A stretch of DNA of 30,795 nucleotides from a virus (lineage: Duplodnaviria > Caudoviricetes): positions 1-30,795 of the IMG/VR virus record IMGVR_UViG_3300023059_000018, one strand, 5' to 3'. Numbering within the stretch: the stretch's first letter is position 1; each line of letters opens with the position of its first letter. The notes below the pieces were generated by a model. That model did no database searches. It saw only the letters and a list, made by a program, of their open reading frames with translations, and was not told where the DNA came from. The translations under genes and the position numbers were made by a program. Shown here one piece after another: positions 1-30,344 of this stretch.

Positions 1-291
1 AAAACCAAAGCATCAGTCATGAAATTCTCACATTATGAAAGAGGGGTATATTTTGAGCGATAATGATTAATAAACCAAGTAAAATAGTCGGAATTTTATA
101 AAATTAAGATAAATTTATGAAGAGCTTAAGGACTATACATTGATTTGATTTGCAGAATTGATATTAAATTATTGATTTTTAAAAATAAAAAATTATTGCA
201 TCCACTCATACCATAAAACTTAAAGGGGTCTAAACTAAAATTATACCAGTTTTAACCGACTTAAAAAATTAAGAATTTAATTTCGAAAATA

Positions 292-322
292 AAAAAGGAA
301 CTGAAAACCTCAGAACCTTTTT
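292..322 (-). terminator. Possible intrinsic terminator closing the leftward (pL) transcript
   Basis: Imperfect hairpin AAAAAGG-AA-CTGA-loop-TCAG-AA-CCTTTTT with A/T tracts on both sides, downstream of the 429..611 minus ORF. Confidence 0.45.
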
Positions 323-428
323 AATAGGTAATAATTATATCTTGAATATAAACCAAAATAGGATGATGACATTGCACTCTATTCTTGTATGAGCTCACCA
401 GATTTATAGAAACATGTTATATCTATTG

Positions 429-611
429 TTATGTTGCCGTAATAAGTTTCACCGCAATAACAGCCGCGATGAGCCAAACTATAAATCCTGCTGATAAGAA
501 CGCTAACATTTTAAGTGTGATTAAAATATTAGATTTAAAATTAGATAACCATAAAGCTTGCCTTTGGTTAGGTCGGGCTGGAGAATTCAAGTTGCGAGAT
601 ATATCTTTCAT
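429..611 (-). CDS. Small membrane protein (60 aa), only gene left in the pL operon
   Basis: GAGGT RBS just upstream of the ATG on the minus strand. Hydrophobic C-terminal helix (MLAFLSAGFIVWLIAAVIAV). Directly downstream of the pL-like promoter. Confidence 0.65.
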   Translation of the reverse strand: MKDISRNLNSPARPNQRQALWLSNFKSNILITLKMLAFLSAGFIVWLIAAVIAVKLITAT

Positions 612-682
612 AATTACCTCTTTTTTTCATAGACATTTTGGTTAGGTTTAGTTTCTAGTGTTAGTAGTAGGCTTAAACGATG

Positions 683-746
683 AATATAGTTTTATCTATA
701 TTGTAAGTCAATAGTTTTAACTATTAAAAATAATAATTTTAACTTT
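683..746 (-). promoter_or_regulatory. pL-like promoter with OL operator cluster
   Basis: Minus strand TTGACT (711-706) - 17 bp - TATATT (688-683). Operator-like 14-mers ATAGTTTTATCTAT (686-699), ATAGTTTTAACTAT (711-724) and degenerate ATAATTTTAACTTT (733-746). Confidence 0.75.
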
Positions 747-757
747 TAATTTTATCA

Positions 758-796
758 TTAATAAAAAAGCCACATTAAATGTGGCTTTTTTATTAA
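758..796. terminator. Intrinsic terminator downstream of cI
   Basis: Long perfect inverted repeat TTAATAAAAAAGCCACAT-TAA-ATGTGGCTTTTTTATTAA. Confidence 0.85.
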
Positions 797-819
797 ATTC
801 TAGATGTATGATTTTGTTA

Positions 820-1491
820 TTATCCTGCTCTCCAGAACTGGCGACCCATCACTCTAAAGTTTTTACCGTTTTCTTCTGTTACACGGCGATCTCTAAATTT
901 TTCGTTGAGACTATGAAGAATTAAAGATCCATCTTCTTCTTTAAAGATCTGTTTTAACATGCCTTCACCAGCAAAATATACAGCATATATTTCACCATCT
1001 ATAATGTGTGTTTGAGATATATCTATGCCTACAAGATCCCCATCTTTTATATAATCCATCATGCTATCACCTTTAGCTTTAATAATACGCATGCAGTCTT
1101 GAGCTACATGTTTTTCTTTAAAAAATGAGGAGGGGAAAGGGATTTTTCCATTAATAGCATCAAAATGAAATTCAATAGATTCGCCTGTTCCACATGAAAA
1201 ATTAGCTTCCACTACTTCTATCCATATGTATTCATTATTTTCCTTACTTGCTACAACTGGTTTAATCAAATCATCTTCACTAAATGAATCTTCAGCATCT
1301 CCGGTTGTTAACCAATAAGCATCTACCCCTAGATATTTTGCAATTAAAGGAAGAAATGCGGACTTTAAGCTTTTTCCTGTTTCCAAGGCTTGATATGTCG
1401 GTTGTTTAATACCAACCGCTTCAGCCACTTCATGTTGACTCTTTCCTGCTTTTAATCGAGCCGTTTTTAGACGAGTTGCTAAATCAGACAT
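820..1491 (-). CDS. cI: CI-like phage repressor (Cro/C1 HTH plus S24 peptidase)
   Basis: N-terminal HTH (RLKTARLKAGKSQHEVAEAVGIKQPTYQALETG). Cys-Gly cleavage-site motif (ANFSCGTG), catalytic Ser (GDSM) and Lys (GMLKQ). The ATG at 1491 is preferred over the ORF-track start at 1548, which runs through the operators. Confidence 0.93.
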   Translation of the reverse strand: MSDLATRLKTARLKAGKSQHEVAEAVGIKQPTYQALETGKSLKSAFLPLIAKYLGVDAYWLTTGDAEDSFSEDDLIKPVVASKENNEYIWIEVVEANFSCGTGESIEFHFDAINGKIPFPSSFFKEKHVAQDCMRIIKAKGDSMMDYIKDGDLVGIDISQTHIIDGEIYAVYFAGEGMLKQIFKEEDGSLILHSLNEKFRDRRVTEENGKNFRVMGRQFWRAG

Positions 1492-1524
1492 GATATTAAC
1501 CCTAAAATCGTTGAGTCTAAGTTT

Positions 1525-1591
1525 ATAGTTAAAACTATTAAGAATCAAAATAACTTGAACTATTGACTTTTGATAGTTAAAACTATAAATT
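1525..1591 (+). promoter_or_regulatory. OR operator cluster and pR-like promoter
   Basis: ATAGTTAAAACTAT at 1525-1538 and 1573-1586, variant ATAACTTGAACTAT at 1550-1563. TTGACT (1563-1568) - 17 bp - TAAATT (1586-1591). Confidence 0.8.
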
Positions 1592-1618
1592 AACTATCAA
1601 GATGGAGTTTTGATAGTT

Positions 1619-1852
1619 ATGAATATAGATGTCACTGTAATCTACATGCAACTAGTGAGCTTTTTCGGGAGTCAAACAAAAACGGCACAAGCACTTTCTA
1701 TTAAGCAGCCTTCGGTTAATGCATGGTTAACAGGTAAAAGTCAAATGTCTGAAAAAATTGCTCTACGGGCAGAACGTGTAACCAATGGGAGCTTTAAAGC
1801 GTATCAACTCTGCCCAACACTGAAAGAGTTTGAAAAGAAAATCGCAAGTTAA
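1619..1852 (+). CDS. cro: Cro-like HTH regulator (YdaS/Cro superfamily)
   Basis: Divergent from cI. Motif FFGSQTKTAQALSIKQPSVNAWLTG...LCP. GGAG at 1604-1607. Start could be 1610 or 1619. Confidence 0.88.
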   Translation: MNIDVTVIYMQLVSFFGSQTKTAQALSIKQPSVNAWLTGKSQMSEKIALRAERVTNGSFKAYQLCPTLKEFEKKIAS

Positions 1853-1990
1853 TTATGACAGCCAAAATATAGATAAATATGAAATTTTTAGGAGTTTATA
1901 AATAGTTGAAATTAGTTTAATGCATGAAATTTAAAGAGGTTTTCTATTAACGAAAGCGAGAAAATAATTTAGGTACTTGATCTAGAAAGC

Positions 1991-2020
1991 AAAAAGTCTG
2001 ATCGGCAAATCAGACTTTTT
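1991..2020 (+). terminator. tR-like intrinsic terminator
   Basis: AAAAAGTCTGAT-CGGCAA-ATCAGACTTTTT hairpin. Confidence 0.75.
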
Positions 2021-2048
2021 AGATAATTCATTTCATGAGGAAATCACA

Positions 2049-2183
2049 ATGAATTTTAAAGTAAATCTATCACAATATATTTACGAAAACAAATCGACAA
2101 GTTGTAACGGCGCTAAAAATAAAATCTTTCAGTATTTAAATCCCTTTAAGGCTCCTTCAAAGGAGTTAAATGCTGATGCGTGA
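2049..2183 (+). CDS. Small hypothetical protein (44 aa) overlapping the replication gene start; not in the ORF track
   Basis: GAGG RBS upstream of the ATG at 2049. Translates MNFKVNLSQYIYENKSTSCNGAKNKIFQYLNPFKAPSKELNADA. The stop lies in ATGCGTGA, overlapping the next start. Confidence 0.5.
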   Translation: MNFKVNLSQYIYENKSTSCNGAKNKIFQYLNPFKAPSKELNADA

Positions 2184-3069
2184 TTATGGAAAAGTTTCTC
2201 CACATTTTTGGACTGGCACAACAGGTAAGCAATTACGAGAGTGTTCTGAGTCCATTATCGTGGCTATGTATTTAATCACCAGTCCGCATGCAAATATGCT
2301 TGGTCTTTATTATATGCCTCTTTTATATATAGCTCATGAAACTGGTTTGGGTTTAGAAGGAGCTGAGAAGGGGCTTCAATGGGCATGTAAAGTAGGTTTC
2401 TGTAGTTATGACAATGTTTCAGAAATGGTCTGGGTACATGAAATGGCTCGTTTCCAGGTTGCTGAGTCTTTAAAAGAAAGTGACAACCGTTGTAAAGGTA
2501 TTCAAAAAGACTATGACTCATTACCATCAAATCCATTTTTAGAAAATTTTTATAATAAATACGTTGAAGCTTTTTGTATGACGCATCGACGTGAAGGAAA
2601 GAATAATAGCTATGTAGAGAAAGAAGTCCCTAATAAGGCTCTTTTAAGCCAAGAACAGAAGCAAGAACAGGAACAGGAAAAAACTCTCTCTCAAGTAATT
2701 TTAACGAACGTTATGAAATCAGAAGATTGGAGACCAGATTTAAATCATCTCGCTATTTATTTGAAAAAGACTAAATACTCTCAGCAAGTGCAAGAAATCT
2801 TATCTATGGATGATTTTGAATTTCATTTGAGCAATTTCAATGCTCACCATGAAACTTCACGGTATTTAACTGATAGTCAAAGACACAGTAAGTTTGCTCA
2901 ATGGATATTTGAAAAGTTTGAAAAGTTAAAAGCTCCAAAAACTAAATCAACGAAGTCAATTTATTTAAATTCAAGAATAGATGGAAGTGTAAATCAAGCT
3001 TTTGAATACCAACAACCAGAATATGACGAAAGTATTAAGCCGCTGGAGTTGGGAGGGAAATTTGTATGA
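2170..3069 (+). CDS. Phage replication initiator (lambda O-like position)
   Basis: Immediately upstream of, and coupled (ATGA overlap) to, a DnaC-like loader. N-terminal MRDYGKVSPHFWTG...YLITSPHANMLGLYY domain and an SQEQKQEQEQE linker, as in phage replisome organisers. AGGAG RBS. Start is 2170 or 2176. Confidence 0.75.
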   Translation: MLMRDYGKVSPHFWTGTTGKQLRECSESIIVAMYLITSPHANMLGLYYMPLLYIAHETGLGLEGAEKGLQWACKVGFCSYDNVSEMVWVHEMARFQVAESLKESDNRCKGIQKDYDSLPSNPFLENFYNKYVEAFCMTHRREGKNNSYVEKEVPNKALLSQEQKQEQEQEKTLSQVILTNVMKSEDWRPDLNHLAIYLKKTKYSQQVQEILSMDDFEFHLSNFNAHHETSRYLTDSQRHSKFAQWIFEKFEKLKAPKTKSTKSIYLNSRIDGSVNQAFEYQQPEYDESIKPLELGGKFV

Positions 3070-3842
3070 ATGTAAGGACAAAGATTAATCACTCTTTCGA
3101 ACCTGGGTTAAATATTTGCCCTATTCATTTGGAGAAAAAGGTCAAGATTGCAGGTTTAGAAATTTGCCCAACATGTGCTGTCAATAAAGTAACTGAGTCT
3201 AATCTCAAGCATAGTAAAGCTGTTAGAAAGATGATTTATGAAAATCATTTGGCAGGTGGAATGCTACCTATCCGTCACAAAAACTCTGGATTTCATAATT
3301 ATCGCTGTGAATTACCAGGGCAAATTATTGCTTTTAATAGTTGCGCCGCTTATGCCGAACAAATTATGAAAGGACAAGTAACTAATCTAGTTATGGTGGG
3401 GAAAACTGGGACAGGTAAAACACATCTTGCATGTGCGACGGCTAGAACATTACTTAAAAATGGCAAAACGGCTCGTTATATCACCAGTGAAGAGTTAGCA
3501 AATGACATCATGGGAGCTTGGTATCGCCAAGGAGATAGTGAAAAAAATACTATTTATCGTTATACGGAATATGACTTACTCATTATTGATGAGTATGGCT
3601 TGCATGATCGCGAAAAACGTAAAGAAGTGGTTCATAAGGTCTTATATGCGCGTTATGACGCAGATAAAGCAACAATGCTTATTTCAAATTTTGCACTTAA
3701 TGATACTAAGGATCGGATAGGTACAATTATTCATGGCTTGATCTCTGATTTAGGTGATCGCCTATGGTCACGTTTTCAACATGGGGGATTAACTCAAATT
3801 GAATGTGTATGGGCAGATACCCGTTTAGGAGCAGAACTATGA
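3066..3842 (+). CDS. DnaC/IstB-like AAA+ ATPase (helicase loader)
   Basis: N-terminal Zn-type motif (CPIH...CPTC), Walker A GKTGTGKT, Walker B LLIIDEYG, and the LYARY...ISN...LGDRLWSR motifs. Confidence 0.92.
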   Translation: MNVRTKINHSFEPGLNICPIHLEKKVKIAGLEICPTCAVNKVTESNLKHSKAVRKMIYENHLAGGMLPIRHKNSGFHNYRCELPGQIIAFNSCAAYAEQIMKGQVTNLVMVGKTGTGKTHLACATARTLLKNGKTARYITSEELANDIMGAWYRQGDSEKNTIYRYTEYDLLIIDEYGLHDREKRKEVVHKVLYARYDADKATMLISNFALNDTKDRIGTIIHGLISDLGDRLWSRFQHGGLTQIECVWADTRLGAEL

Positions 3843-4330
3843 ACATTAAATTAGAGCTTACTAAACATGATTATTCAATGAGTTATTCAAATGTTTTTCT
3901 TAAGTCTAAACAGCGTAATGAACTAGCTATTCAATTAGCAGAATGGGTAGCTCAAGGTAATCAGATTACCTTAGTTGAAAACAATATTGAGAATCAAGCC
4001 TATATTAAACAGGGCATGGGGAAGTTTACTAAAGATGAGTATAACAGCAGAAGTTATATGGAACATGGCGTAACATCAAAAATCTTATTGACTCATTCAC
4101 TAATTAAAGAAACGACGGCGTATCCAAATTACCAACAAGCTTTATTAAAAATATTTGTTAACAAGTTCGGACAATCTTGGGATTTCTTGGCAGCTAATTC
4201 TGGCTATACATTAACAGCCCATCAGCTTCGTCGGATTTATTATGGACGATCAGAAGCCTCATTACTTGATTGGAATATTTTAAAACAGTCACTAGAAGCT
4301 TTAGGGGTGAATAATGAATCATCTTGTTGA
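3839..4330 (+). CDS. Hypothetical phage early protein, possibly with a C-terminal HTH
   Basis: ATGA overlap with the DnaC-like stop, so the start is placed at 3839. C-terminal WDFLAANSG...AHQLRRIYYG is HTH-like. Confidence 0.65.
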   Translation: MNIKLELTKHDYSMSYSNVFLKSKQRNELAIQLAEWVAQGNQITLVENNIENQAYIKQGMGKFTKDEYNSRSYMEHGVTSKILLTHSLIKETTAYPNYQQALLKIFVNKFGQSWDFLAANSGYTLTAHQLRRIYYGRSEASLLDWNILKQSLEALGVNNESSC

Positions 4331-4541
4331 ACAGCGTTATTGTCAAACTCGAAGTGTTGGAATTATTCAGAAAAAAATTCTAAGTAATTTGAGCGATTTG
4401 AAGAATGTGGAATTGCCTATCCAGAGTAATAAAAATTTTGCTCATGAACCGAAATTACAGAAAAAGCACTTTAAATGCTTATTTAGTACAGAACTTTATA
4501 GGCGCTTATTAATAACTAAATGTACTGAGGGCTTAATGTAA
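4314..4541 (+). CDS. Hypothetical protein (75 aa)
   Basis: GGGGTG RBS. Overlaps the preceding stop and is TAATG-coupled to the next gene. Confidence 0.55.
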   Translation: MNHLVEQRYCQTRSVGIIQKKILSNLSDLKNVELPIQSNKNFAHEPKLQKKHFKCLFSTELYRRLLITKCTEGLM

Positions 4542-4756
4542 TGAAAACTGATCAAATTATTTTAGTAATAGTTGCCTCATTTGCCTTCTATTTTGCTGTT
4601 AAGTTTTTGATGCAATGGTTGGTCGGTGAATATAACCATGGGGCAGTTATTGAATGGATGCGAAGAGGCTTCGCCTTTGGATTGGGTTTTATTTTTTCGA
4701 TATTAGTAATGATCGTGATTGTGTATATTTTGAGAGGGTTAATGAATGAATATTGA
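4541..4756 (+). CDS. Small two-helix membrane protein
   Basis: Two hydrophobic segments, GAGG RBS, coupled to both neighbours. Confidence 0.65.
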   Translation: MKTDQIILVIVASFAFYFAVKFLMQWLVGEYNHGAVIEWMRRGFAFGLGFIFSILVMIVIVYILRGLMNEY

Positions 4757-5306
4757 TATTAGTATTATGAATCAGTTTACTCAGTTTCAATGGTTATCCC
4801 GAGGCTTAACAGCACAATCATTGGACTTTTCAAGAGTTGGACATACCCCTAGTAAGGACGCTATTAATTATCAAGATAGGTTAGGGGCAATTGCTAAAAT
4901 GGAGACTCAATTAGCTAAATCAGTATCTTCATTAATTATTTATAATGGAAAATCAGAAGAGGACTATAAGTTTATAAGAAATCATTTAGCTTTAATTATG
5001 TTAAAAGAGGCTGAAAAAGATAAAAAAAGAGAACCTGAATATATTGCTATTCACCATTTAGCATGGCTTATTGCTCGCATGGTTATCGATTTTTCTCTAA
5101 ATCCTGATCTTGAAAAAAACTTTACTGCTCAAGGTAGACTTTATTATGCAGGTATTACGGCTTATAAAATGTCCGCAGATGTTTATAGAATGACTTGGAA
5201 GCCATATGAGAAGTTGATGCAGCTTGCGCTTGAATCTGCTATTGCAGAAGCAGAGGATACTATCCGTGAATATCGGAAAGATACTTACAAAGAGTTACAA
5301 TTATAG
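4746..5306 (+). CDS. Putative late-gene antiterminator (Q-like)
   Basis: Last early gene, 186 aa. Followed at once by a promoter with a -10-like pause element and terminators. The late region is full of intrinsic terminators. The assignment is mainly positional. Confidence 0.65.
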   Translation: MNIDISIMNQFTQFQWLSRGLTAQSLDFSRVGHTPSKDAINYQDRLGAIAKMETQLAKSVSSLIIYNGKSEEDYKFIRNHLALIMLKEAEKDKKREPEYIAIHHLAWLIARMVIDFSLNPDLEKNFTAQGRLYYAGITAYKMSADVYRMTWKPYEKLMQLALESAIAEAEDTIREYRKDTYKELQL

Positions 5307-5308
5307 GG

Positions 5309-5358
5309 TTTTCATTATTGTGAAAAAAAGTGTATAGTGTTTATAAGATGGTCGTATT
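5309..5358 (+). promoter_or_regulatory. Putative late promoter pR'/qut, copy 1
   Basis: TTTCAT (5310-5315) - 17 bp - TATAGT (5333-5338), then -10-like TAAGAT-GG (5344-5351) at the expected start site. 38/50 identical to 12451-12500. Confidence 0.7.
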
Positions 5359-5460
5359 GCAAATTTTGTTTGTGGTGCGACTTTTTTGTTTAAGTTATTT
5401 AAATACAATACATTTAATTTTGTATTTCTTATTTTAGTTTTGCTGTACAAATTGCAGCAT

Positions 5461-5501
5461 ATAAAGCCGTATCAAAATAGGTTGATACGGCTTTATTTTT
5501 T
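5461..5501 (+). terminator. tR'-like intrinsic terminator
   Basis: ATAAAGCCGTATCAA-loop-TTGATACGGCTTTAT followed by a T tract. Confidence 0.8.
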
Positions 5502-5531
5502 ATTAGTAATAGGTATGGAAAGGTATTTATT

Positions 5532-5681
5532 ATGAGTTGTAATAGTTGTGCTAAAAGGCGTAAATGGTTAGAGAGTAAATATAATGAACTTGAACGAAGA
5601 ACAAAACTTGTGCTGCTCAAAGCTACTCGAAGTAATGGACGAGTTGATAAAGCAGAACAATACATTGATTCAAAAGGCTGA
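5532..5681 (+). CDS. Small CxxC protein (49 aa), first late gene; not in the ORF track
   Basis: GGAAAGGT RBS. Translates MSCNSCAKRRKWLESKYNELERRTKLVLLKATRSNGRVDKAEQYIDSKG. Overlaps 5584..5808 in another frame. Confidence 0.55.
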   Translation: MSCNSCAKRRKWLESKYNELERRTKLVLLKATRSNGRVDKAEQYIDSKG

Positions 5682-5808
5682 AAAGAAAGATACTCTTATT
5701 TATGCTGCTATTGAGCAGAATAATAAATTACTTCAACAGTATGTTGAAAATAAAAAAGTTGATGAAAATATTATCGCTTACTTAGATTCAAAGCCAAAAG
5801 AAAAGTAA
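5584..5808 (+). CDS. Small coiled-coil hypothetical protein
   Basis: GAGAG RBS and a heptad pattern (LIKQNNTLIQ...IEQNNKLL). Confidence 0.65.
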   Translation: MNLNEEQNLCCSKLLEVMDELIKQNNTLIQKAEKKDTLIYAAIEQNNKLLQQYVENKKVDENIIAYLDSKPKEK

Positions 5809-5855
5809 TATTTATATTAACTGGTAAGAGTATTTTGTATTATCTTAGTTGTTAG

Positions 5856-5888
5856 GAGAGCTAGATTTAAAGTCTAGCTCTTTTTTTT
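5856..5888 (+). terminator. Intrinsic terminator
   Basis: GAGCTAGATTT-AAAGTCTAGCTC followed by 8 T. Confidence 0.75.
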
Positions 5889-5901
5889 ATTGGGAAAAAA
5901 T

Positions 5902-6129
5902 ATGTTAAAGATAAAAGTCCAGTTTTTAACTACATGTATGCATAATCGAATTGTTTATATAGCCAATGAGATTATTGAGCTTGAAAAAAGAGATGCAGAT
6001 GATTTACTCAAGCTCAATTTAGTTAAAGTTATTAATTCAGATGTACTGAGAAAATCTAATAAATTAACCAATCAAGATAAGCCAAGGCGTACACGTAGTA
6101 AATCTCATCAAAATAATATTTTTAAATAA
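5902..6129 (+). CDS. Small hypothetical protein, possible relic of the head-gene region
   Basis: GGGA RBS, ATG at 5902. The pattern KVQFL...NEIIEL...ADDLLKLNLVK plus a basic tail recalls small proteins encoded just after major capsid genes (by eye). Confidence 0.55.
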   Translation: MLKIKVQFLTTCMHNRIVYIANEIIELEKRDADDLLKLNLVKVINSDVLRKSNKLTNQDKPRRTRSKSHQNNIFK

Positions 6130-6198
6130 CGTGTTTTTTAATGATTTTATTTTTTATCAATAGATAATGTAGTGATTTTTACTTGTTTAGGTAATTTT

Positions 6199-6372
6199 AT
6201 GTCTGTAAATATGAGTGGTTTGACTAATCTACAAAACAAATTAAAGAAATTATCAGATGATAAGAGAATTAATCAAATTGTAGAGGATGTTGAAAAGAAA
6301 GCAACTTCTCAAAAAAATGCTAAAGAATTAATGATTAAAATGCTTCAAAGTGAATTAATAAATAAATTTTAA
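6199..6372 (+). CDS. 57-aa protein resembling a shortened HK97-gp10-type tail completion protein
   Basis: AGGT RBS. The N-terminus MSVNMSGLTNLQNKLKKLSD resembles the x-G-L-x-x-L-x-x-K-L-x-x-L start of that family, and the position before the tail tube fits. Much shorter than typical members. Confidence 0.5.
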   Translation: MSVNMSGLTNLQNKLKKLSDDKRINQIVEDVEKKATSQKNAKELMIKMLQSELINKF

Positions 6373-6458
6373 TACGGTTTATTAGAGAACTGTTGGTAAT
6401 TAAGACAGAATTTATATATTAGAGCTATATAGTATTTCACAAATTCTAAAATTTTATT

Positions 6459-6482
6459 GCCTCGCAAACGCGAGGTTTTTTT
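6459..6482 (+). terminator. Intrinsic terminator before the tail tube gene
   Basis: GCCTCGC-AAAC-GCGAGGT plus T tract. Confidence 0.75.
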
Positions 6483-6506
6483 CGTCGTTAAAAAAGGAGT
6501 CCAATC

Positions 6507-6974
6507 ATGGGCGTATTAACACAAGGTACTGAAACATGGGTGAAACATGGTTCACCAGCTGTATTAACTAAAATTGAATGTATTACTGAATTGTCGGTAG
6601 GCGATGATAGTGTTACTGAAATTGAAACAACATGTATGGAAGAACGTGAATCTTCAACTTCAGAATATGGTTTGGTTAAACCAGGTGAAGGTAGTTTGAA
6701 AATCAATACTGATCCTGAAAATGAAACCCATGTTACGATTTTGAATTTGGCACAAAACAAAGCAAAAGTTGATGTGTTCGTGGGATGGGCGGATGGTACG
6801 GTTGCACCTACTTTACAGGGCGATGTTGTTACAGTGCCACAAGGTCGTTCTTGGACACAATTTCAAGCCCAATTACGAAAAGGCCCGCCAATTTTCGATA
6901 AAGACTCACTGGTAAACCATACTATTCCAATGAAGCGCCAAACCCCAGCTTTCGATACATTGAAAACCGTTTAA
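6507..6974 (+). CDS. Major tail tube protein (non-contractile tail)
   Basis: AAGGAG RBS. Motifs TQGT, EIETTCMEE...GLVKPG, GWADGT..PT and RSW..F typical of siphovirus tube proteins. Located before the chaperone and tape measure genes. Confidence 0.88.
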   Translation: MGVLTQGTETWVKHGSPAVLTKIECITELSVGDDSVTEIETTCMEERESSTSEYGLVKPGEGSLKINTDPENETHVTILNLAQNKAKVDVFVGWADGTVAPTLQGDVVTVPQGRSWTQFQAQLRKGPPIFDKDSLVNHTIPMKRQTPAFDTLKTV

Positions 6975-6991
6975 GGTTTTTTAGCATTATT

Positions 6992-7018
6992 AATAAGCCT
7001 GCTAAGCAGGCTTATTTT
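6992..7018 (+). terminator. Intrinsic terminator after the tail tube gene
   Basis: AATAAGCCTGC-TAA-GCAGGCTTATTTT. Confidence 0.75.
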
Positions 7019-7036
7019 CTTTTGGAAAATTAAAAA

Positions 7037-7665: not shown

Positions 7666-7676
7666 TTATAACTAAT

Positions 7677-7710
7677 TTAAAAAAGCACTTTTCTAAAAGT
7701 GCTTTTTTAA
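7677..7710. terminator. Bidirectional terminator between gpT and the antisense moron
   Basis: TTAAAAAAGCACTTTT-CT-AAAAGTGCTTTTTTAA inverted repeat between convergent genes. Confidence 0.8.
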
Positions 7711-7716
7711 AATAAA

Positions 7717-13085: not shown

Positions 13086-13102
13086 ATACTTGTTCACTTA
13101 TG

Positions 13103-24600: not shown

Positions 24601-27600
24601 GCCGATAGCAGTTTTGCGACTTCTGCCGCCCTTACTTCTTTAACATCTAGTGTTAATCAACAAGGCAGCACTATTACAAGTCAAGGTACTGACATTACTA
24701 GCTTGAAAAATAGTGTTACCTCTATCAACGGAACGCTTACCAATAAAGCGGATGCTTCGGCTGTAAACACTCTTTCTAACCGAGTGACAGCAGCAGAAGG
24801 AAACATTACAAGCCAAGGCAATTCAATCACAAGCCTAAACAACACGCTTGCGAATAATGATTTGTCGAATCTTATTCTCAATCCTGACTTTATTACCCCT
24901 AAGAACGTTTGGTCAGCAGGCTTAATTGTTGATGCTACTGATGCTGCGCCGAATCCTCCATCTCCAAAAGCACTAAAATTAACATTGCGTGATACCTATT
25001 ATGGTCCGTTTGTTAAATGCAATACAGGAGATATGTTCTATGTTTCCGGGTGGTTTGCTACCCCGAATACATCTGCGGCTGCTTCTGTTGTTCTTGGGTT
25101 TAATACTAGAAATAGTACAGGAACACATTCTTGGTACTCGGTTGCAGTTAAATCAACTGATAAAAATGCGTGGGGATTTGTTGAAGGTTACTTCACTGTG
25201 CCAAATGGCATGGTCGAAATTCGTCCTTGGCTTCAAGTAAGTATTGTTGCGGCAGATGCACCTGCTCAACTCTGGCATGTAACGAATATCCAAGTTCGCA
25301 ACATCACTGGTAATAAAAAGTTAGCAAGTGACTTGCAGGCAACTTCGTCTGCATTAAGTACGCTTGATTCGAAAGTTACTAACATTGATGGCCGTGTTAC
25401 TTCTGCATCTAACAATATTGTCACTTTAAACAATAGCGTTACCAACATTAATACCGCGCTTTCTCAGAAAGCAGATGCATCCGCTCTAAGCTCATTATCA
25501 AATCGAGTGACAACTGCTGAGGGCAACATTAGCTCTCAAGGTAGCTCGATTACTTCCTTAACTAATAATCTAGCGGTTACTACCAATACAGCAAACGCTG
25601 CATTGCCTAAGATTCAGGGTGGCACTGGTGCAGCGAAACTGTTCAGAGGGGTATTAGTTCACCAACAAAGCGGCGCAAATATCATCGGCAATATCGTAAT
25701 TCAAACGCCTATCACGTTCACAAGCAAGATGTTTAGATTGGCGCTTAGTGGTTATAACTATTTAGCTGGCAAAACTGATATCAATTTGAATATCGGTGGT
25801 TACGCTTATACCGGTACTTCAATTATTCAGCACGGGGTAGTGAACTCGGGTACATTACCTATTCGTGTTCGTTTAGGTGTTCGTAACGGTACAGTAGTCA
25901 TCATCTTGACTTCTCAAGCACCTAACGCTTATTGGCAGTATCCTAAATTTAACATTGATGCAGAAATCGGTTATACAACGCCACCTGATAGTTGGTCTGA
26001 GGGTTGGTCTGCAAGTTTAATTGCGGAAGCCGACCTTGCAGCAAATGGCATTTCAGCGATCATTGAGCCATCTTTATTAGATGTTTCTACAGAGATTACA
26101 GCTAACGCCTTTGCCATTAGCAATCTGACGAATACAGTGTCACAACAAGGCGATACCATTACTTCTCACAGTAATAGCATCACTACGCTAAACAACAGCA
26201 TTACAAGCATTAATGGTGCTTTAAATACTAAAGCGAGCACTTCTGCCGTTACTGATCTTGACAGCCGTGTAACGACTGCTGAAGGCAAAATCACAGCAAA
26301 TACATCTTCAATCACTAGCCTAACCGCGAATCTTAAAAATGTAGCGAATGGCATCACTATGTCTGCATCGCTTGATGTGGATCCTGATAGCGAGTGGATT
26401 TATTGGACCAAAAATGGCGAAGTCGCAAGAGCTGACGCCGTAGACGCTTTAGGCGGTAAAGTTTATCGCTTTGGTAATAACGCGGGTAACGACCACGTAA
26501 ACGCAAGATCAAAAGCAAAACTGCCGTTTGATCAAACGAAGACCTATCGCATCCGCGCTCGATATCGTCGTCTCAGTGGTATAGGAACAGTCTACTGTGC
26601 AGTTTACACCTTGGCCGCTGATGGCACTTCGCATGTTAACTCAAGCAACACCGTGTCTACTGACTTTGGTTCTTCAAATTACTTTGTGATCAATCAAAGC
26701 CCTGCAAACAACGTCTGGCAAGAAGTGACTGTATACGTCAAAGGACGTTCGGCAGGAGCTGCAACAGGCAGTTGGACACTAGCAGCGCCTCGTCAAATGC
26801 CAAATGCCACTGCATTTTTAAGCGTTCAATTCCTTGGTAACTATTCAAATGCAGCGGGGATGACGGAGCTTGATTACCTCATCATTGAGGATGCTGATGC
26901 AATTGCTGCCAACGATGCTACAGCCAATGCTTTATCTTCACTTACTACCCGTGTTGGCACGGCTGAAGGAACGATTACAAGCCAAGGTAATTCGATCACT
27001 CAGTTAAACAATAGCATCACAACTATTAACGGCACATTAACAAGCAAGGCGGATAGCTCAGCTTTAACGCATTTGGCAAACCGAGTAACTGTAACTGAAG
27101 GCTCCATTACCTCTCAAGGTTCTAGCATTACGTCTTTGAATAGTTCGGTTAATGGATTGTTGAAAGATGTTGAGGTTACGGACACTCGTTCTACTAACCA
27201 ACCACCATCATGGTATTGGACAAATTACCCTAAACGCATTGTTCGTGAGTTCAAGCAAGCTTCGACAATCGGCTTGACTGGAATGGGCACATACGTCTCG
27301 TTAGAAACTTATGTCTATTACAGTGATGCGACAGGCGGCCCAATCATTCAAATTGCACGCGGTACTGACTCTAAGCTTACTGCGGAACGCCGTAGTGCGA
27401 GCGCTTCAACTTGGAGTACTTGGTCGCAAGACGTTAAGACTCTGAGTGATGGTCTTGCCAACAAAGCAGAAGCTTCAGCTCTATCTTCTTTAGATGCCAA
27501 AGTAACGACCATTGATGGGAAAGTTTCGACTCAAGCTACAAGCATCACAAACCTTACAACCACTGTAGGCGGACACACTGCGTCTATCCAATCTCAACAA

Positions 27601-28041
27601 CAATCAATTGATGGCCTAACTGCAAGAGCAACTCTGAAATTGCAATCAGGCAATTTGGTTGGCGGCGTCGGGATTGAAAATGACAGCAAGACAGTTGATT
27701 TCATTGTTCAGGCAAACAGATTTGCAATCGGCGCGCCGTCAACTGTCACTGGTACAGTAACTCCGAAATATGCATTTACTTATCAATCGACTTCAACAAC
27801 TTTACCGAACGGCACTGTGATTCCAGCTGGTTTGTATTTAGACAATGCATCTATTGGTTATATTAATGCTGAAAAAATTAATGCATCAAGCCTAAGCGCC
27901 CTAAGTGCGACGCTTGGAACCTTAACTACTTATAAGGATCCCGCTAAGCCTAATGGGGCTCGAATGGTACTTACAGGCAGTTTGATTACCATTTATGACG
28001 ACAACAATATTATGCGAGTAAGGATGGGATTATGGGATTAA
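15661..28041 (+). CDS. Giant central tail fibre / host-specificity protein (lambda gpJ-like, about 4126 aa)
   Basis: gpJ-type N-terminal ~830 aa (EGEIEGL, YPNTAL, YSNNPAW, EPRFTCN, GCTSRGQAQRAG, FN3-like repeats). Then an Ala/Thr coiled coil, about 11 globular modules separated by repeated spacers, and a C-terminal GGVGI...FIVQANRFAI domain of the kind that ends J proteins. Confidence 0.93.
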   Translation: MSIVKGSKKGSGQARQPNIAPDSAQSKTRINILYGLAEGEIEGLANGNKSILFENTPLEDNNGKLNFESVKVDFRSGTNDQDYIEGFPAVESETAIDVELKAGTPWVKSFKNLDLDALRIRLKWGPLRTQDATSGDVSGVTIEYAVELQTDGGPWTEVLKTKISDKTSANYERAHRINLPKADSDWLIRVRRLTPNSTSEYVSDKMYIEAVTEVIDAKLRYPNTALLGLQYDAETFNNIAKIAVECKGTKIKLPSNYNPVSRTYAGMWDGTFISAYSNNPAWVYYDICTSDRYGLGDRLTPFMIDKWSLYRLGQYCDESVNDGQGGQEPRFTCNVYLQRAEEAYEILKKLAGVFRAISYWDGNSIICDADIPQDTYFTYTRANVIGEFEYSGTRARDRHNVVKVAFDNPANHYKTEYEYVRDEQAISDSGQVRILDLNAWGCTSRGQAQRAGLWALKSEQSETRTVTFKVGLDGWIPQPGRVIEIADELFAGRANGGRVSAISEDRVNLTIDRDDVVAKPGDRLVVNGENGKAQTRIIQSINGRVITVTLPFDLGSIAAENIWVIDAQDLATMKFRVISIRQEEKNKFTINAIQYNSKKFDEIDSGAYFEEVPISVINPTIQDPVSDILITSENKVNQGINITTMILSWKQAKGAVKYLVEWRKDNGSWLRLPFTGNNSLEVQGVYSGNYQARVTAISAFEVSSLPVYSSITELVGKKGLPPKLEYIRATGILFGMQLDWSFPNVGAQDAAYVEIRVSPDGVSNIAPLGQFAYPTNTHKVQGLQPNLIQYYSGRIVDKIGNMGAWSEWVNGTTIADPDAVLDLISGHIAESDLAQELQGKIENTVNVAEAAEQAATNAQTAASSAQTAASNAQTAATDAKTAATNAQTTASSAQTQATNAQQVANEASATAANAKNTADQASSTALTASNAAANAKTAADTAKTMAESATSVAATANTAATNAQTTATNAQTAASKVASDLTTSTNQLNQKIADETSTRTTAISQLNDGLTTETTQRKTEDTALLSNIETYKSSTNGTLSTLQTQITTNATNTSANTSKITSLDSRLTTNEGKTADAISSAATAQQTANTAVTNAAAAASAVTSLRSDLSSGKGINNIIAPYSDPQELPTNILGASRTVALVNSTMRVKGKAYDVTFTAVAGNIYFGSASSGTANTTAAGSITGGKRYMLSAYLKNLDATKQADVYFSLLWFRRAADGTISTGQATLQNQATGNLRVTPSNDGGTVTCKAVTAPVDAFAFTFMCTGNSSYNVAGSRILIDMLMLEESIGDDKPASTWTAGSADLGAIKTALDANASAISSITTRVTNAEGTITSQGNSITQLNNSVTSINGTLSNKADATALSALTNRVTTAEGQITAQGSAIVSIKNDLVATNNALTTKADSSALNTLDSKVTSIDGRVISNAGAITSLKSELSGKGANLLIASFSDPQVVPYTATKSGVEVSLIDSMLRTGKAYNFKNLTTNISNYVYIGNYSDGKQAPVAVRGGAKLLFSFYAKSDVAGYIGRFSLRVFNQSGTNVQTVTLLWTSTQTQNVSFTTDLVKYNLYLSSPIHADGVTASILLYTGGASSASMTPVGAILTMDKLMIEEYVGDNKDGSPWVSGSADLNAIYASLDASATAVNNLTTRVSNAEGTITSQGNSITSLRNDLTTTNTNVSKKADASALTSLDTKVTSIDGRVTTNTNAVTALQGRVTTVEGGLSTKADASALSDYYTKTEANSATSGAIDTFNSQLTIGGVNVVANSEAPRTSSAASNKEYLLYERSAELKAFYDENLDKPVTISFEMSVPVVGSVQVYSSNGSAHTFTTSVNAVIANQWIKYSVTVNPKTHTASTTVSTIEFYGTYGTGRIPTIRKLQIEAGTKATAWSPSPRDIKASLDANASAIQTTQTQVNNIDGKLTTATDSITSLSSRMTTAEGNITSTNGAVSGLSTRMTTAEGKITNQSDSITSLQNSVTTINGTLANKADSTAVTNLTSRVTAAEGNITSQSGQIVTLNNSLNTTNDALNDVNALARLQSLGKPLRDDPMFAIGAGGLAAYIPITGSSFTRQAKSSDNPSTSTHEMVLAFTSTVSGLGSGWLPNSPTLVGGPNKVYLIKQVIKMPVGFYLVAIGNDIGTGGYRKIYGNIDGTGKFETYLTVVACGPDATASIQGHFRAAVRSAQTGTSANPIEVKLASYEVFDVTAVNDTIPKTYRDTIAANASAITSLTNTVTQQGNTITSQGNSITSLNNSITSINGSLASKADASAVTSLDSKVTLIDGKLTSNTSALTALQSSFDGLPNQGVNILGPEISNPVEKPTNWTSGLPFEIIQSPDTVNVRAFQFTMPASSGNGTYFNIGGGQVPRQWLNEGKYVFSFVAKTVGGTPPHPIEWQFYNADSIRQRFSVTATLTRFSGVFTVPAGGAAICMLLIGNPTAKAAGQVINIERIMLERQVGNNTTPSTWIAGTDASGMIISTQAKATDLFNTATNQNTATAGRVTSLESRMTSTEGTLSTKADASALQTLDTKVTNVDGKVTSNTNAITSLNSALTNATSTISMNAGSPLADWTTYAATGEFNVITEATGQSGKVIQLGNNAGNDTIWLHANNLIPFDQTKTYRIRARYRRRSGTGTIYLGIAQKTPDKAWYVTTGNTQASNMASSNYVVNAHAPAIDEWQEMVGYYKGRSTGAATGSGSLASPRTASQMTGFITPLFIANYQNQAGIVELDYLILEDAEAIAGNQANATALTTLDTKVTEVDGRLTTATNSITSLGSRMSTAEGNISATNSALSGLSTRMTAAEGGLTNQSNSITSLTNSINSLDSDSLIPDYNLANPEKWISHYGYPMTQYFKTTTTGKVSNTVFRKDTSSPVNCFNYARTPVPNDRTYKVSFWVRCSADSNGLLMIPIGRSGNDGKFTTTGYSSIGIPLTEVPKNETWTKIERTANLTSTSDVNPQLFFGIAPGHTGSTGWWEVQGFKVSPVLTTADADSSFATSAALTSLTSSVNQQGSTITSQGTDITSLKNSVTSINGTLTNKADASAVNTLSNRVTAAEGNITSQGNSITSLNNTLANNDLSNLILNPDFITPKNVWSAGLIVDATDAAPNPPSPKALKLTLRDTYYGPFVKCNTGDMFYVSGWFATPNTSAAASVVLGFNTRNSTGTHSWYSVAVKSTDKNAWGFVEGYFTVPNGMVEIRPWLQVSIVAADAPAQLWHVTNIQVRNITGNKKLASDLQATSSALSTLDSKVTNIDGRVTSASNNIVTLNNSVTNINTALSQKADASALSSLSNRVTTAEGNISSQGSSITSLTNNLAVTTNTANAALPKIQGGTGAAKLFRGVLVHQQSGANIIGNIVIQTPITFTSKMFRLALSGYNYLAGKTDINLNIGGYAYTGTSIIQHGVVNSGTLPIRVRLGVRNGTVVIILTSQAPNAYWQYPKFNIDAEIGYTTPPDSWSEGWSASLIAEADLAANGISAIIEPSLLDVSTEITANAFAISNLTNTVSQQGDTITSHSNSITTLNNSITSINGALNTKASTSAVTDLDSRVTTAEGKITANTSSITSLTANLKNVANGITMSASLDVDPDSEWIYWTKNGEVARADAVDALGGKVYRFGNNAGNDHVNARSKAKLPFDQTKTYRIRARYRRLSGIGTVYCAVYTLAADGTSHVNSSNTVSTDFGSSNYFVINQSPANNVWQEVTVYVKGRSAGAATGSWTLAAPRQMPNATAFLSVQFLGNYSNAAGMTELDYLIIEDADAIAANDATANALSSLTTRVGTAEGTITSQGNSITQLNNSITTINGTLTSKADSSALTHLANRVTVTEGSITSQGSSITSLNSSVNGLLKDVEVTDTRSTNQPPSWYWTNYPKRIVREFKQASTIGLTGMGTYVSLETYVYYSDATGGPIIQIARGTDSKLTAERRSASASTWSTWSQDVKTLSDGLANKAEASALSSLDAKVTTIDGKVSTQATSITNLTTTVGGHTASIQSQQQSIDGLTARATLKLQSGNLVGGVGIENDSKTVDFIVQANRFAIGAPSTVTGTVTPKYAFTYQSTSTTLPNGTVIPAGLYLDNASIGYINAEKINASSLSALSATLGTLTTYKDPAKPNGARMVLTGSLITIYDDNNIMRVRMGLWD
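18190..18990 (+). repeat. Ala/Thr/Asn-rich heptad repeats (e.g. AQTAASN / AKTAATN) in gpJ
   Basis: Tandem 7-aa periodic repeats, strongest at about 18220-18590. Confidence 0.75.
19570..27620 (+). repeat. Dispersed coiled-coil spacer repeats in gpJ
   Basis: Recurrent RVTxAEGxITSQGNSITxLNN and KADASALxxLDxKVTxIDG. Exact 14-mer ATTACAAGCCAAGG at 19654, 20620, 24805 and 26974. Confidence 0.85.
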
Positions 28042-28118
28042 TTGCTGTAGCAGTAATAATTTTAATTATTATTGGTCTTGTGCTTTGTAAAAAGTACAAA
28101 GAAGACCAAGGAGTCTAA
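28032..28118 (+). CDS. Putative 28-aa single-pass membrane peptide overlapping the gpJ stop; not in the ORF track
   Basis: MGLIAVAVIILIIIGLVLCKKYKEDQGV, with purine-rich AAGGATGGGA upstream. It fills the J-to-next-gene gap exactly, stopping 1 nt before the GTG at 28120. Confidence 0.5.
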   Translation: MGLIAVAVIILIIIGLVLCKKYKEDQGV

Positions 28119-28119
28119 A

Positions 28120-28425
28120 GTGCTTCAAGGTATTCAAGTTAGAGATGAGACAAGCAACATCATCTTAGATACAAATGACAGTGTAGTTCAGTATAAGGGG
28201 CAGATTACCTTATCTGGTGAAACTGATGGTAGTTTAGTTTTTAGTTCTTTTCCGGGAGGTAATGCTAAATTCTTTTACATTACTATTGCTACCACAACTA
28301 CAAATGGTAATGCCTTCCATCCAAGGGTTATATGGAATCCTACTACTAAAACAGTTAGTTGGACATTTATTCGTAGGGGATTAGATCAACCGCAACCAGT
28401 GGAGTTATTTTATGGCTTTGTTTGA
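28120..28425 (+). CDS. Post-J tail tip accessory protein 1 (101 aa)
   Basis: AAGGAG RBS before GTG 28120. GIQVRDETSNIILD...ELFYGFV pattern. Position after the central fibre. Confidence 0.7.
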   Translation: MLQGIQVRDETSNIILDTNDSVVQYKGQITLSGETDGSLVFSSFPGGNAKFFYITIATTTTNGNAFHPRVIWNPTTKTVSWTFIRRGLDQPQPVELFYGFV

Positions 28426-29140
28426 GGTGTATAACGATCAGGGGATTCAGCAGGTTACTGCTATCAATGCCACATTTTATTTAAAACATAAAGTAGTAGG
28501 AAAGGATCTTCCCTTACAACCGGGTGAAGACCCTGATCCACATTTATCAGTGTACCGTTCTTTCTACTTTGAAGCTGAATTTCCTATTATTGCTTTAGCT
28601 ACTACTGGTATAGATAAATGGACACGTGTACATGGTCTTTATCGTTTGCAAGGTAATAACTGGCGTGTTGATTGGATAGATTCATCGTCTGACTATACTA
28701 AACCTACATTAGAGCAAGGTGTAGATACTATTGTTTATATCTTTGACTTGAGATCTACAGCAGACCCTAATAACAATTTCGGTTTGAATCTCTATGGACC
28801 AGACGGTAAGTGTACTTACAGTTCAAATCAGGCACCATTTAAGGTTCTTGATGTTTTTGAAGTTCCGGGAATGTATAACTTAGAATATAACCCTGTTTTA
28901 AGTTCAAAGGTTGCAGGTAGACAGTTAGCTGTTATCTCAAATCGTTATAGAGATTTCTATGCATATAACGATCCTAGTGATGCTTTCTATGTATATGAAA
29001 GCTTTAGTACAGGTGTAGGTCAAGTTAAGATAAGTTATGTAGATCCTCAAACATCTACCTTCTATGATCCTGGTGCAAATATGGATGGGACCAATGATCG
29101 AAAGCCAATGGTTACGGTAGTTGATGTAACGAATCTATAA
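28412..29140 (+). CDS. Post-J tail tip accessory protein 2 (242 aa)
   Basis: GGAG RBS, overlap-coupled. Two related motifs FEVYNDQG and FGLNLYGPDGKCTYSS, as in proteins encoded after J in lambdoid/T1-like tails. Confidence 0.72.
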   Translation: MALFEVYNDQGIQQVTAINATFYLKHKVVGKDLPLQPGEDPDPHLSVYRSFYFEAEFPIIALATTGIDKWTRVHGLYRLQGNNWRVDWIDSSSDYTKPTLEQGVDTIVYIFDLRSTADPNNNFGLNLYGPDGKCTYSSNQAPFKVLDVFEVPGMYNLEYNPVLSSKVAGRQLAVISNRYRDFYAYNDPSDAFYVYESFSTGVGQVKISYVDPQTSTFYDPGANMDGTNDRKPMVTVVDVTNL

Positions 29141-29198
29141 AAGAAAACCCCCTTAATTGAGAATATTAAGTAACTTCTAATTCACAGTCTTTATTACA

Positions 29199-29220
29199 GC
29201 ACCCACAAGGGTGTTTTTTT
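29199..29220 (+). terminator. Intrinsic terminator before the lysis cassette
   Basis: GCACCC-ACAA-GGGTGT plus T tract. Confidence 0.72.
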
Positions 29221-29247
29221 ATGCCCAAAATCAGGAGGAAGGCATGC

Positions 29248-29532
29248 ATGAATGATCGGACAAATAGTGTGGTTGAAGCAGCTGCAAGTACGGCTGCGGC
29301 TACGGCAACAAAATTTTCATATGGCTATGTAGTAGGAGGGGGATTGATTGGAATTGCTGGAAAAATTGATTGGGCTGTAATTATTTCAATCTTAATAGGT
29401 GTAGCAACCTATTCAACGAATCTCTACTTTAAGCGCCGTGATGAAAAGCGTTCAGAAGAGATTCATGAATTGCGTAAAAAACAGTATGAGCAAGCCAAAC
29501 AACGCATCAAAGAGGATAAAGATGAAAAGTGA
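29248..29532 (+). CDS. Putative holin
   Basis: AGGAGG RBS at 29233-29238. Hydrophobic segments (IDWAVIISILIGVATYSTNLYF) and a highly charged C-terminus. Lies upstream of the endolysin. Confidence 0.72.
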   Translation: MNDRTNSVVEAAASTAAATATKFSYGYVVGGGLIGIAGKIDWAVIISILIGVATYSTNLYFKRRDEKRSEEIHELRKKQYEQAKQRIKEDKDEK

Positions 29533-29743
29533 AAATACTCGGACATATTTAGCGTACATGGTTATTGCAATGTCATTTCTCTGTGTTCTTGGTTTGTTCT
29601 TTATTGAATATCCAGACAAAAACCGTGATCTATTAAACGTGTCACTAGGGACCTTACTTGGTTTATCTAGTGCTGTGATTGCCTTTTATTTTGGATCTAC
29701 CAATAAACAAAAGAAAGAAACTGAAGATTCAAATCAACAGTAA
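29522..29743 (+). CDS. Second lysis-cassette membrane protein (holin/antiholin-like, 73 aa)
   Basis: Two TM segments, NRDLLN..LG.L...VIAFYFGS motif, overlap-coupled to the previous gene. Start at 29522. Confidence 0.7.
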   Translation: MKSENTRTYLAYMVIAMSFLCVLGLFFIEYPDKNRDLLNVSLGTLLGLSSAVIAFYFGSTNKQKKETEDSNQQ

Positions 29744-29798
29744 TTATTTAAATTTAAGTGCTACCTTGGGGTAGTTTTCAGCTCTAAAGGAAAGTGAA

Positions 29799-30344
29799 AT
29801 GAACATTGAAAAATATCTAGATGAGTTAATTAAGCGCGAAGGGGGCTATGTGAATAATCCAGCGGATCGAGGAGGCGCAACAAAGTACGGAATTACTGAA
29901 GCAGTTGCTCGAGTAAACGGTTTTAAAGGTAATATGCGAGATTTGCCTATTGAAACTGCAAAGTCTATTTATAAAAAACAATACTGGACAGCCCCACGCT
30001 TTGATCAAGTAAATTTAATTTCTCCTGTAGTAGCTGAAGAACTTTTAGATACAGGTGTTAATTGCGGCATAGGATTTGCAAAACCCCTTTTACAGCGTGC
30101 CTTAAATTTGCTGAATAACCAAGGTAAGGCAGGTTGGTCAGATCTTGTAGTGGATGGAATTTATGGTCCTGCAACTTTGAATGCCTTTAAAACCTACTTA
30201 GCCAGACGAGGTAAAGATGGTGAGAAAGTCTTGGTGCGTGTACTCAATATCATGCAAGGTCAGCTTTATATTGAAATCTGTGAGCGCAATCCCAGTCAGG
30301 AGCAGTTTTTCTATGGCTGGATTGCTCATCGAATCTCATTATGA
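29799..30344 (+). CDS. Endolysin, glycoside hydrolase family 108 with peptidoglycan-binding domain
   Basis: EGGYVNNPADRGGATKYGIT catalytic motif, DTGVNCG, LQRALN...VDGIYGPAT and FFYGW. Confidence 0.93.
   Translation: MNIEKYLDELIKREGGYVNNPADRGGATKYGITEAVARVNGFKGNMRDLPIETAKSIYKKQYWTAPRFDQVNLISPVVAEELLDTGVNCGIGFAKPLLQRALNLLNNQGKAGWSDLVVDGIYGPATLNAFKTYLARRGKDGEKVLVRVLNIMQGQLYIEICERNPSQEQFFYGWIAHRISL

Follow-up and report, generated by a model that had tools for sequence, protein, structure and literature searches.

What is a chromosomal locus that carries a complete siphovirus tail, a phage switch and a lysis cassette, and no head? The question is raised by IMG/VR virus record IMGVR_UViG_3300023059_000018, a single contig of 30,795 bases analysed here over its full length (the window), in which a first-pass annotation had proposed a flexible (F-type) tailocin at 290-30344. 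The locus is wider than that, extending from a host intergenic junction to a tRNA 3' end (~123-30667), and is a head-less derivative of an HK97/HK022-type prophage, devoid of a working attachment (att) pair and fixed at tRNA-Arg(CCG). We consider it probable that it encodes an SOS-inducible F-type tailocin, built like rhizoviticin with an F-pyocin-like tail.

Open reading frame (ORF) and family scans resolved the gene order. It starts with a CI-like repressor with helix-turn-helix and S24 autoprotease domains (820-1548, minus strand, likely start 1491), a Cro-like regulator (1610-1852, plus), an O/DnaD-like replication initiator (2170-3069, plus; phrog_1701), a DnaC-like helicase loader (3066-3842, plus; phrog_50, IstB/DnaA ATPase) and three small early ORFs (3803-4756, plus). 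A 186-aa gene in the Q position follows (4746-5306, plus), then three small ORFs, the tail tube gene (6507-6974, plus; PF16460), the tail assembly chaperones (7037-7665, plus; PF16459), a reverse-strand moron without family match (7717-8595) and a 1210-aa tape measure (8721-12353, plus). The plus-strand tail tip genes (12744-15600) are M (12744-13085), L (13100-13858), K (13871-14620), a small ORF (14654-14878) and I (14938-15600); they precede the 4130-aa central fibre J (15649-28041, plus; 12.4 kb), two small genes (28072-29140, plus) and a lysis cassette of holin, second small membrane protein and GH108 endolysin (29221-30344, plus), with the host tRNA-Arg(CCG) at the end (30668-30744, minus). 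All named genes are uninterrupted ORFs, in agreement with the first-pass description of intact tail, switch, replication, Q-like and lysis genes. The tail set of tube, chaperones, tape measure, tip and central fibre is complete and non-contractile, with no sheath, as expected of an F-type tailocin.

Scans of 28 window ORFs gave no family match for packaging, capsid or integrase functions, leaving aside incidental 'minor head protein' matches on J repeats. From the closest head-bearing relative, sixteen proteins of the early, packaging, head, neck and integration modules (terS, terL, portal, protease, capsid, Ad1, Hc1, tail terminator and integrase among them) gave no tblastn match in any of six head-less records, the search covering those records; capsid, portal and terminase genes are missing from the locus in all six. 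Compared with the headed relatives G252 and G253, the window lacks the integrase and leftward operon, the genes between cro and O, the nin region, the post-Q methylase, the block from HNH through capsid, the adaptor and closure genes, and most of neck1 and the terminator. The tail terminator gene, next after neck1 in headed relatives, is absent from the head-less copies. The integrase, att pair, packaging and head modules of an intact temperate siphophage are thus wanting, and the interval from Q stop to tube start (5306-6507) is 1.2 kb, the length first reported.

The earlier statement that packaging, head and integration genes are unrecognisable holds for those 16 proteins but not for their remnants. 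About 140 decayed bases of an integrase 5' relic (~206-343) lie within an eroded left att region (123-343, plus) that has no duplicate of the att core; the relic alignment scored 66, and in each of three copies the score was reached by 0 of 500 shuffles. Between Q and the tube are a shortened remnant of the 102-132 aa ORF located after the capsid gene (5902-6129, plus; phrog_33217) and an N-terminal relic of neck1/tail completion retaining ~50 of 152 aa (6199-6372, plus). The small ORF at 5584-5808 (plus) has a homologue (49% identity) directly preceding the HNH/terS genes in headed relatives, and a 60-aa ORF without family match (429-611, minus; similar ORF in L004) is a leftover of the leftward operon. 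The 5584 ORF is overlapped, in a different frame, by a 49-aa ORF with a CxxC start (5532-5681) whose first part aligns in all six copies.

Because the window is a lone virus-collection contig without a host genome, the missing head could in principle reflect an assembly artefact or a recent strain-specific deletion, alternatives that the first-pass annotation had kept and that we regard as scarcely credible. A tube query against the virus collection returned 42 loci: seven, from six records, were 99-100% identical and had the window gene order, nine were at 95%, and 26 at 53-60% identity were left out of the head-gene comparison. The head-less order was found in 6/6 full-length related records plus one partial record, the full set being the window (W) and five rebuilt records (G002-G005, G255). 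The Q gene divided 15 loci into six at 93-100%, all of them head-less, and nine at 72-77%; the moron and the 5584 ORF were each found only in head-less records (6/6 loci). In all six records the Q-tube interval was colinear at 82-99% identity with the same junctions, and contigs of an independent run cover 5637-7707. The gap is therefore neither an assembly error nor specific to one strain. No phage or plasmid record covers 80% of 820-8000, which argues against a plasmid or cultured-phage origin.

The same head-less order at the same tRNA-Arg locus, anticipated in the first-pass annotation, was seen in several Acinetobacter species. Among the proteins that cluster with Q, moron and lysin, named members come from A. 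baumannii, A. nosocomialis, A. seifertii, A. pittii, A. oleivorans and A. lactucae. In five of these assemblies, among them A. baumannii and A. pittii assemblies and one of A. seifertii, the accessions of Q and moron are 7 apart, as the head-less order predicts; this spacing, which is accession arithmetic only, suggests that the order is also present in those assemblies.

Comparison with headed prophages dated the loss. At the same yadG/att site lies G252, a headed prophage of this lineage that still has the att core and an integrase. Together with the headed G253 and G254 it is colinear with the window (O 71%, DnaC 64-66%, Q 72-77%, tube 95% and the J N-terminal part 66-75% identical), and a giant J (3701 aa) followed by a post-J pair is present in G254 too. 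These prophages differ in having another CI type (24%) and in retaining integrase (G252, G253), att (G252), early-left, nin, HNH, terminase, portal, capsid, adaptor, neck and terminator genes; in the related headed L006, PHROG confirmed the genes for head, neck and terminator. The head-less copies formed one clade with 100% support in 6/6 partitions, with only two headed outgroups. Synonymous distance (dS) of the core genes to headed relatives was 1.3 or more, or saturated, and nucleotide identity to the nearest of them was only 70-79%. A close head-bearing relative, which would have spoken against a domesticated locus, was thus not found, the nearest lying at dS >1.3. Given this divergence from a headed prophage at the same site, head loss was an old, single event rather than a recent deletion, and the deletions have a single origin.

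The insertion site is equally constant. Positions 1-122 are host intergenic DNA upstream of a yadG-like ABC ATPase (queF-yadH-yadG flank), 97-100% identical to 20 Acinetobacter representatives, with the flank genes present in L004 and in named records. The locus adjoins this yadG/tRNA-Arg(CCG) site of the A. calcoaceticus-baumannii complex: tRNA-Arg is at the right end in five of six records and the att core in the sixth, and the yadG-side flank is present in all four records reaching that far. In the head-less copies the att core is found at the right end only. With integrase and att decayed, and neither a working integrase nor an att pair present, the locus is unable to excise by itself. Among 20 fetched species representatives, the site was empty in 15 and held other integrase-bearing elements in five, each repeating the att core at its left end; none held this locus.

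Other shortened prophages were observed at this tRNA-Arg site. L083, L090 and L091 are unrelated to the window; one fuses an integrase piece directly to tail-tip genes and two retain only att repeats, morons and lysis genes. In G005 the tRNA immediately behind the head-less locus holds an inserted integrase-bearing lambdoid prophage (26363-28897; L099 11200-13897), whose integrase and adjacent gene are similar to those found at this site in G011. L070 and L071, filed as plasmids, carry rpsB, tsf and queF and are probably misfiled chromosome pieces.

Is the remainder of the locus maintained? The ratio of nonsynonymous to synonymous changes (dN/dS), estimated by Nei-Gojobori counts from pairs that are not independent and subject to recombination, gave a consistent answer. 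Tail-core dN/dS was 0.056-0.075 in 9/9 head-less pairs and 0.041 between two headed phages. The switch, replication and Q genes gave 0.05-0.09 in six divergent pairs (0.05-0.11 for the replication genes) and 0.10-0.21 in three near-identical pairs with few changes. By gene, values were 0.023 for the tube, 0.045 for CI, 0.068 for the initiator, 0.056 for the loader and 0.058 for the Q-position gene; the three small early ORFs were partly relaxed (0.34, 0.88 and 0.20), and the post-capsid relic (0.50) and the neck1 relic (0.42) were relaxed. These two relics gave 0.40-0.52 in five divergent pairs versus 0.079 for the same genes in the headed pair, and tail and relic values differed in two disjoint pairs (Fisher p 9e-13 and 5e-15), even though the relics were still below neutrality (p 0.002 and 0.01). 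In aligned codons, stops were confined to positions close to the ends of two ORFs, the 5584 ORF and the moron. Thus, the tail, switch, replication, Q and lysis genes are under purifying selection while the head/neck relics are relaxed, an outcome that agrees with the domestication suggested in the first-pass annotation.

This pattern bears on whether the locus is a cryptic prophage kept for immunity or for SOS-triggered lysis (releasing extracellular DNA or vesicles), its tail genes intact through slow decay or recombination repair from live phages. In its favour are the conservation of CI, operators and lysis genes, the rare and patchy occurrence of the locus, and the common loss of head and integration modules from domesticated proviruses (PMC13626063). 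However, the tail core has diverged to dS 0.14-0.35 among copies and shows no premature stop among its aligned codons, even as integrase and att decayed, and the known headed relatives (tail-core dS 1.9) are too distant to serve as a repair source. We regard this explanation as very unlikely.

How would the tail genes be controlled? The Cys-Gly, Ser and Lys motifs of CI are kept in 6/6 copies, and CI is flanked by three palindromic operator-like sites on either side, at 686-746 (putative O_L) and 1525-1586 (putative O_R). Their conservation across copies is the evidence for them; because the pattern was read off the window sequence itself, a shuffle count is not a fair test. The Q-position protein had no Pfam, PDB-sequence or useful NCBIfam match. 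Its predicted fold (pLDDT, the predicted local distance difference test, 80) gave lambda Q (Z 7.0, root-mean-square deviation 3.5, 101 aligned) and AlpA (Z 6.8) as the top two structural matches, and Foldseek also returned lambda Q (prob 0.90, E 0.72). A Z of 7.0 is below the tool's usual bar and the assignment relies on two concordant searches and gene position; on these modest but concordant scores the 186-aa protein is a putative Q-like late antiterminator.

A late-promoter-like motif lies after Q at 5332-5354, followed by a terminator-like hairpin in what may be a pR'/tR'-like region (5309-5382, plus), and recurs at 12474-12496 (plus) between tape measure and M, in 6/6 head-less and 3/3 headed records. 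The second copy is likely a second Q-loading promoter for the tip and giant fibre genes. Four terminator-like hairpins separate Q from the tube gene; terminator-like sites were above chance in the scan (11 vs 3.6 expected), and the promoter scan alone was at chance (33 vs 39.5 expected). S24 repressor motifs, operator-like sites, a Q-like gene and lysis genes are present, from which DNA-damage induction followed by lysis may be predicted.

The hosts carry a related repressor of their own. In 20/20 best CI matches among Acinetobacter representatives (L050-L069; L230 2544-6940), the repressor is 78-82% identical to that of the window. Six of these loci were read and comprise an xseA-like gene, a 77-aa ORF, CI, a holin and then, where the flank reaches, a GH108 endolysin 69-74% like that of the window. 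This host module looks like a domesticated core lysis cassette unlinked to tail genes. An AlpD-like core terminator was not found near it, and phrog_78 was matched in only one of five Acinetobacter genomes. Cross-regulation by the 80%-identical host CI was unsupported, window-type operators being present in 2/20 loci. That hosts already possess a separate CI-holin-endolysin module is a further point against a prophage kept for its immunity or lysis.

The tail itself resembles that of F-pyocins. A slippery site at 7348 in the chaperone gene, with the -1 frame open for 103 codons, is the same in 8/8 records and would permit a frameshift product. The sole PDB match of the tube is the tube of F2-pyocin entries (E 1e-14), and J residues 1-1184 best match the F2-pyocin fibre (E 5e-249), ahead of lambda J (4e-132). 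Beyond a conserved N-terminal hub, J consists of modular helical and beta-rich segments; the single-sequence fold of residues 2800-3290 was of low confidence (pLDDT 46) and was not used for fold search. The post-J pair matches unnamed phage families and fits PyoF11/PyoF12 in position and size; both genes are candidate receptor-binding genes. The holin directly follows this pair, where F-pyocins have the side fibre (PyoF13) and chaperones; in headed G254, too, J is followed by two small genes and a side fibre was not seen.

The specificity genes are highly variable beside the constrained tail core. J ranges over 2857-4563 aa across copies, with the N-terminal 850 residues conserved and the middle modular. 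The post-J pair is different in 6/6 copies (13-57% pairwise identity), and W and G255, 99-100% identical over the first 7 kb, fall to 10% in the post-J bin. The middle domain of the tape measure is also a swapped allele, an SLT transglycosylase in G002, G003 and G005, with no SLT domain detected in W or G004, which have an unassigned domain there. The moron, which has an apparent signal peptide consistent with an exported product, is shortened in G004, G005 and G255. Purifying selection on structural genes combined with a variable specificity module is what is expected of a tailocin.

The same variability could point elsewhere: to tail particles that do not kill, acting as adhesins, surface-polysaccharide binders or decoys, or to a stored receptor-binding cassette feeding fibre alleles to incoming phages. 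In J, a very large modular protein, there are beta-rich domains, one of them weakly CBM_4_9-like (E 2e-4, below cut-off), and fibre and tape-measure alleles are often swapped. Strong selection on the switch and Q, on the chaperone frameshift, and on the tube and lysis genes is, however, not what a passive store would show, and tails of this family kill in Pseudomonas (PMC12874032). We therefore judge a non-killing or reservoir role improbable.

Which known system, then, does the locus resemble most? Rhizoviticin of Allorhizobium vitis, a proven F-type tailocin in which replication genes are needed for tail gene expression (PMC10811719), is likewise a head-less prophage at a tRNA gene with an integrase remnant, no att duplicates and a CI/LexA-like repressor, retains replication, tail and lysis genes, and occupies one site in a subset of strains (PMC10811719). 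Every element of this anatomy (tRNA site, integrase remnant, absence of att duplicates, CI-like repressor, replication genes) recurs in the window (compare PMC10811719), a comparison of gene anatomy and not of sequence homology. In contrast, rhizoviticin is chimeric and alphaproteobacterial with DnaA/DnaB-like genes (PMC10811719), whereas the window locus has a lambdoid chain (O, DnaC-like, Q-like), is largely colinear with one headed lineage, occurs in several species and bears hypervariable giant fibres. Since rhizoviticin has the same anatomy, the anatomy is of an already known kind, which raises the odds of the tailocin interpretation and lowers its novelty.

The P. aeruginosa F-pyocins share the order of tube, two chaperones, tape measure, M/L/K/I/J and two small post-J genes, with no terminator gene in the cluster (PMC12874032; PMC13455828; 10.64898/2026.02.24.707460), besides the F2-pyocin matches of the tube and of the N-terminal third of J. 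F-pyocin clusters lack a terminator gene, and particles without terminator still kill (PMC12874032, PMC13455828); for the F7 pyocin the terminator is encoded elsewhere and is dispensable for killing, while side fibres are required for assembly (PMC12874032). The window locus differs in having no side-fibre or fibre-chaperone genes and a J that, in the head-less copies, is 2.4-3.8x longer than the 1204-aa F2 fibre. It is moreover an accessory and not a core locus, with its own CI/Cro/Q switch and replication genes. It lies in another host at another site, not at trpE-trpG under PrtR/PrtN, and is not an F-pyocin proper. The carotovoricin of Pectobacterium also combines a conserved core at one site with fibre genes recombined across species, an exchange pattern like that of this locus, but is contractile (R-type) and genus-wide where the window locus is non-contractile and patchy (PMC13195805). 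No Acinetobacter tailocin was found among the matches listed from the literature searched, which covered few subscription papers, so that an earlier genomic mention is possible; the two top-ranked Acinetobacter reviews have the word tailocin in references only (PMC12473004, PMC10967457).

Retained replication genes also invite another explanation, a helper-dependent tail donor or tail-forming satellite. On induction of a related headed prophage, the locus would replicate in place and supply tails to the helper's terminator and heads, thereby changing host range or being moved by in-place packaging. Phage-inducible chromosomal islands that form capsids (cf-PICIs) do use spare phage tails (10.1101/2025.02.11.637232), tracts of this locus move between species, G005 harbours an integrase-bearing prophage right behind it, and the tube remains 95% identical to that of headed phages at saturated dS, with the replication genes under the selection described above. 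However, the terminator, neck, adaptor, HNH and terS genes and the HNH-terS DNA, likely containing cos, are deleted, att is eroded, the neck relics are relaxed, and 0/5 other inserts at the site looked capsid-forming on ORF inspection of the stretch read. Moreover, rhizoviticin needs its replication genes for tailocin gene expression (PMC10811719), so that a satellite explanation is unnecessary for them. We consider the tail-donor explanation unlikely. A cf-PICI has its own capsid and packaging genes and no tail genes, and the window locus is the opposite. A combined form, a mirror of the capsid-forming islands, is also doubtful: an immobile, self-amplifying element whose giant-fibre tails would kill competitors when alone, and would join the heads and terminator of a co-resident related prophage, spreading itself and its receptor cassettes across Acinetobacter species.

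For the favoured interpretation, an F-type tailocin, a course of events can be proposed. In lambda, RecA drives repressor cleavage, and DNA damage would trigger cleavage of CI in the same way. The O/DnaC pair may then copy the locus; with att gone, this replication could only amplify it in place. The Q-like protein would open the late operon by antitermination past the four hairpins that separate Q from the tube. The tails set free by lysis would be flexible, DNA-free, terminator-less and of variable length; by a rule of thumb, the 1210-aa tape measure points to a tail of near 180 nm. The J modules and post-J pair would choose the receptor, and neighbouring Acinetobacter would be killed by tape-measure ejection and inner-membrane puncture. 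This last step is modelled on the F7 pyocin, in which a fold switch of the fibre coiled coil is accompanied by ejection of the tape measure and membrane puncture (PMC12874032).

Several observations weigh against an F-type tailocin. Membership in the class rests on killing, which is predicted for this locus. F-pyocin likeness, giant J and post-J pair occur in headed relatives as well and are therefore not diagnostic, and the tube identity to headed phages also fits tail donation. The locus has no side-fibre gene, while the F7 pyocin needs one for assembly (PMC12874032), which counts against a simple transfer of the F7 model. At low depth, the contigs from three RNA runs extend over spacers as well as genes, and possibly derive from DNA. 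The sample comprises six full copies and two outgroups, with head-gene absence read within the locus. The locus was present in 0/247 Acinetobacter species representatives, a set outside which near-identical genomes may lie: no tube exceeded 56% identity, and the DNA search scored only ~2 candidates per genome. A species-core locus is ruled out on this result. Among the cluster members listed (15 of 25), window-type tubes are on at least 147 contigs and headed-type tubes on at least 311.

Finally, the locus is not congruent with its hosts, contrary to what had been anticipated for a domesticated element. Between G002 and G004 the dS of the element is 0.05-0.30 (0.30 in the early genes, 0.15 in the tail core, 0.05 in the lysis genes) against 0.53 in the host flank, so tracts of this accessory locus moved between hosts after the hosts had split. 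The F-type tailocin first proposed is thus supported by gene order, site and selection, but not by agreement with the host tree.

These analyses make the locus an unusually readable case of prophage domestication, with a headed relative at the same site, an integrase and att whose erosion provides neutral controls, and neck relics that are relaxed next to strongly constrained tail genes. It opens to testing why early tailocins retain the replication genes of the phage and whether killing is possible for a flexible tail that has neither side fibres nor terminator. If the locus does kill, the A. calcoaceticus-baumannii complex would have a native tailocin family, where the searched literature offered none. 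It would also provide at least six natural receptor-binding cassettes, of use for narrow-spectrum antibacterials and in mapping surface receptors.

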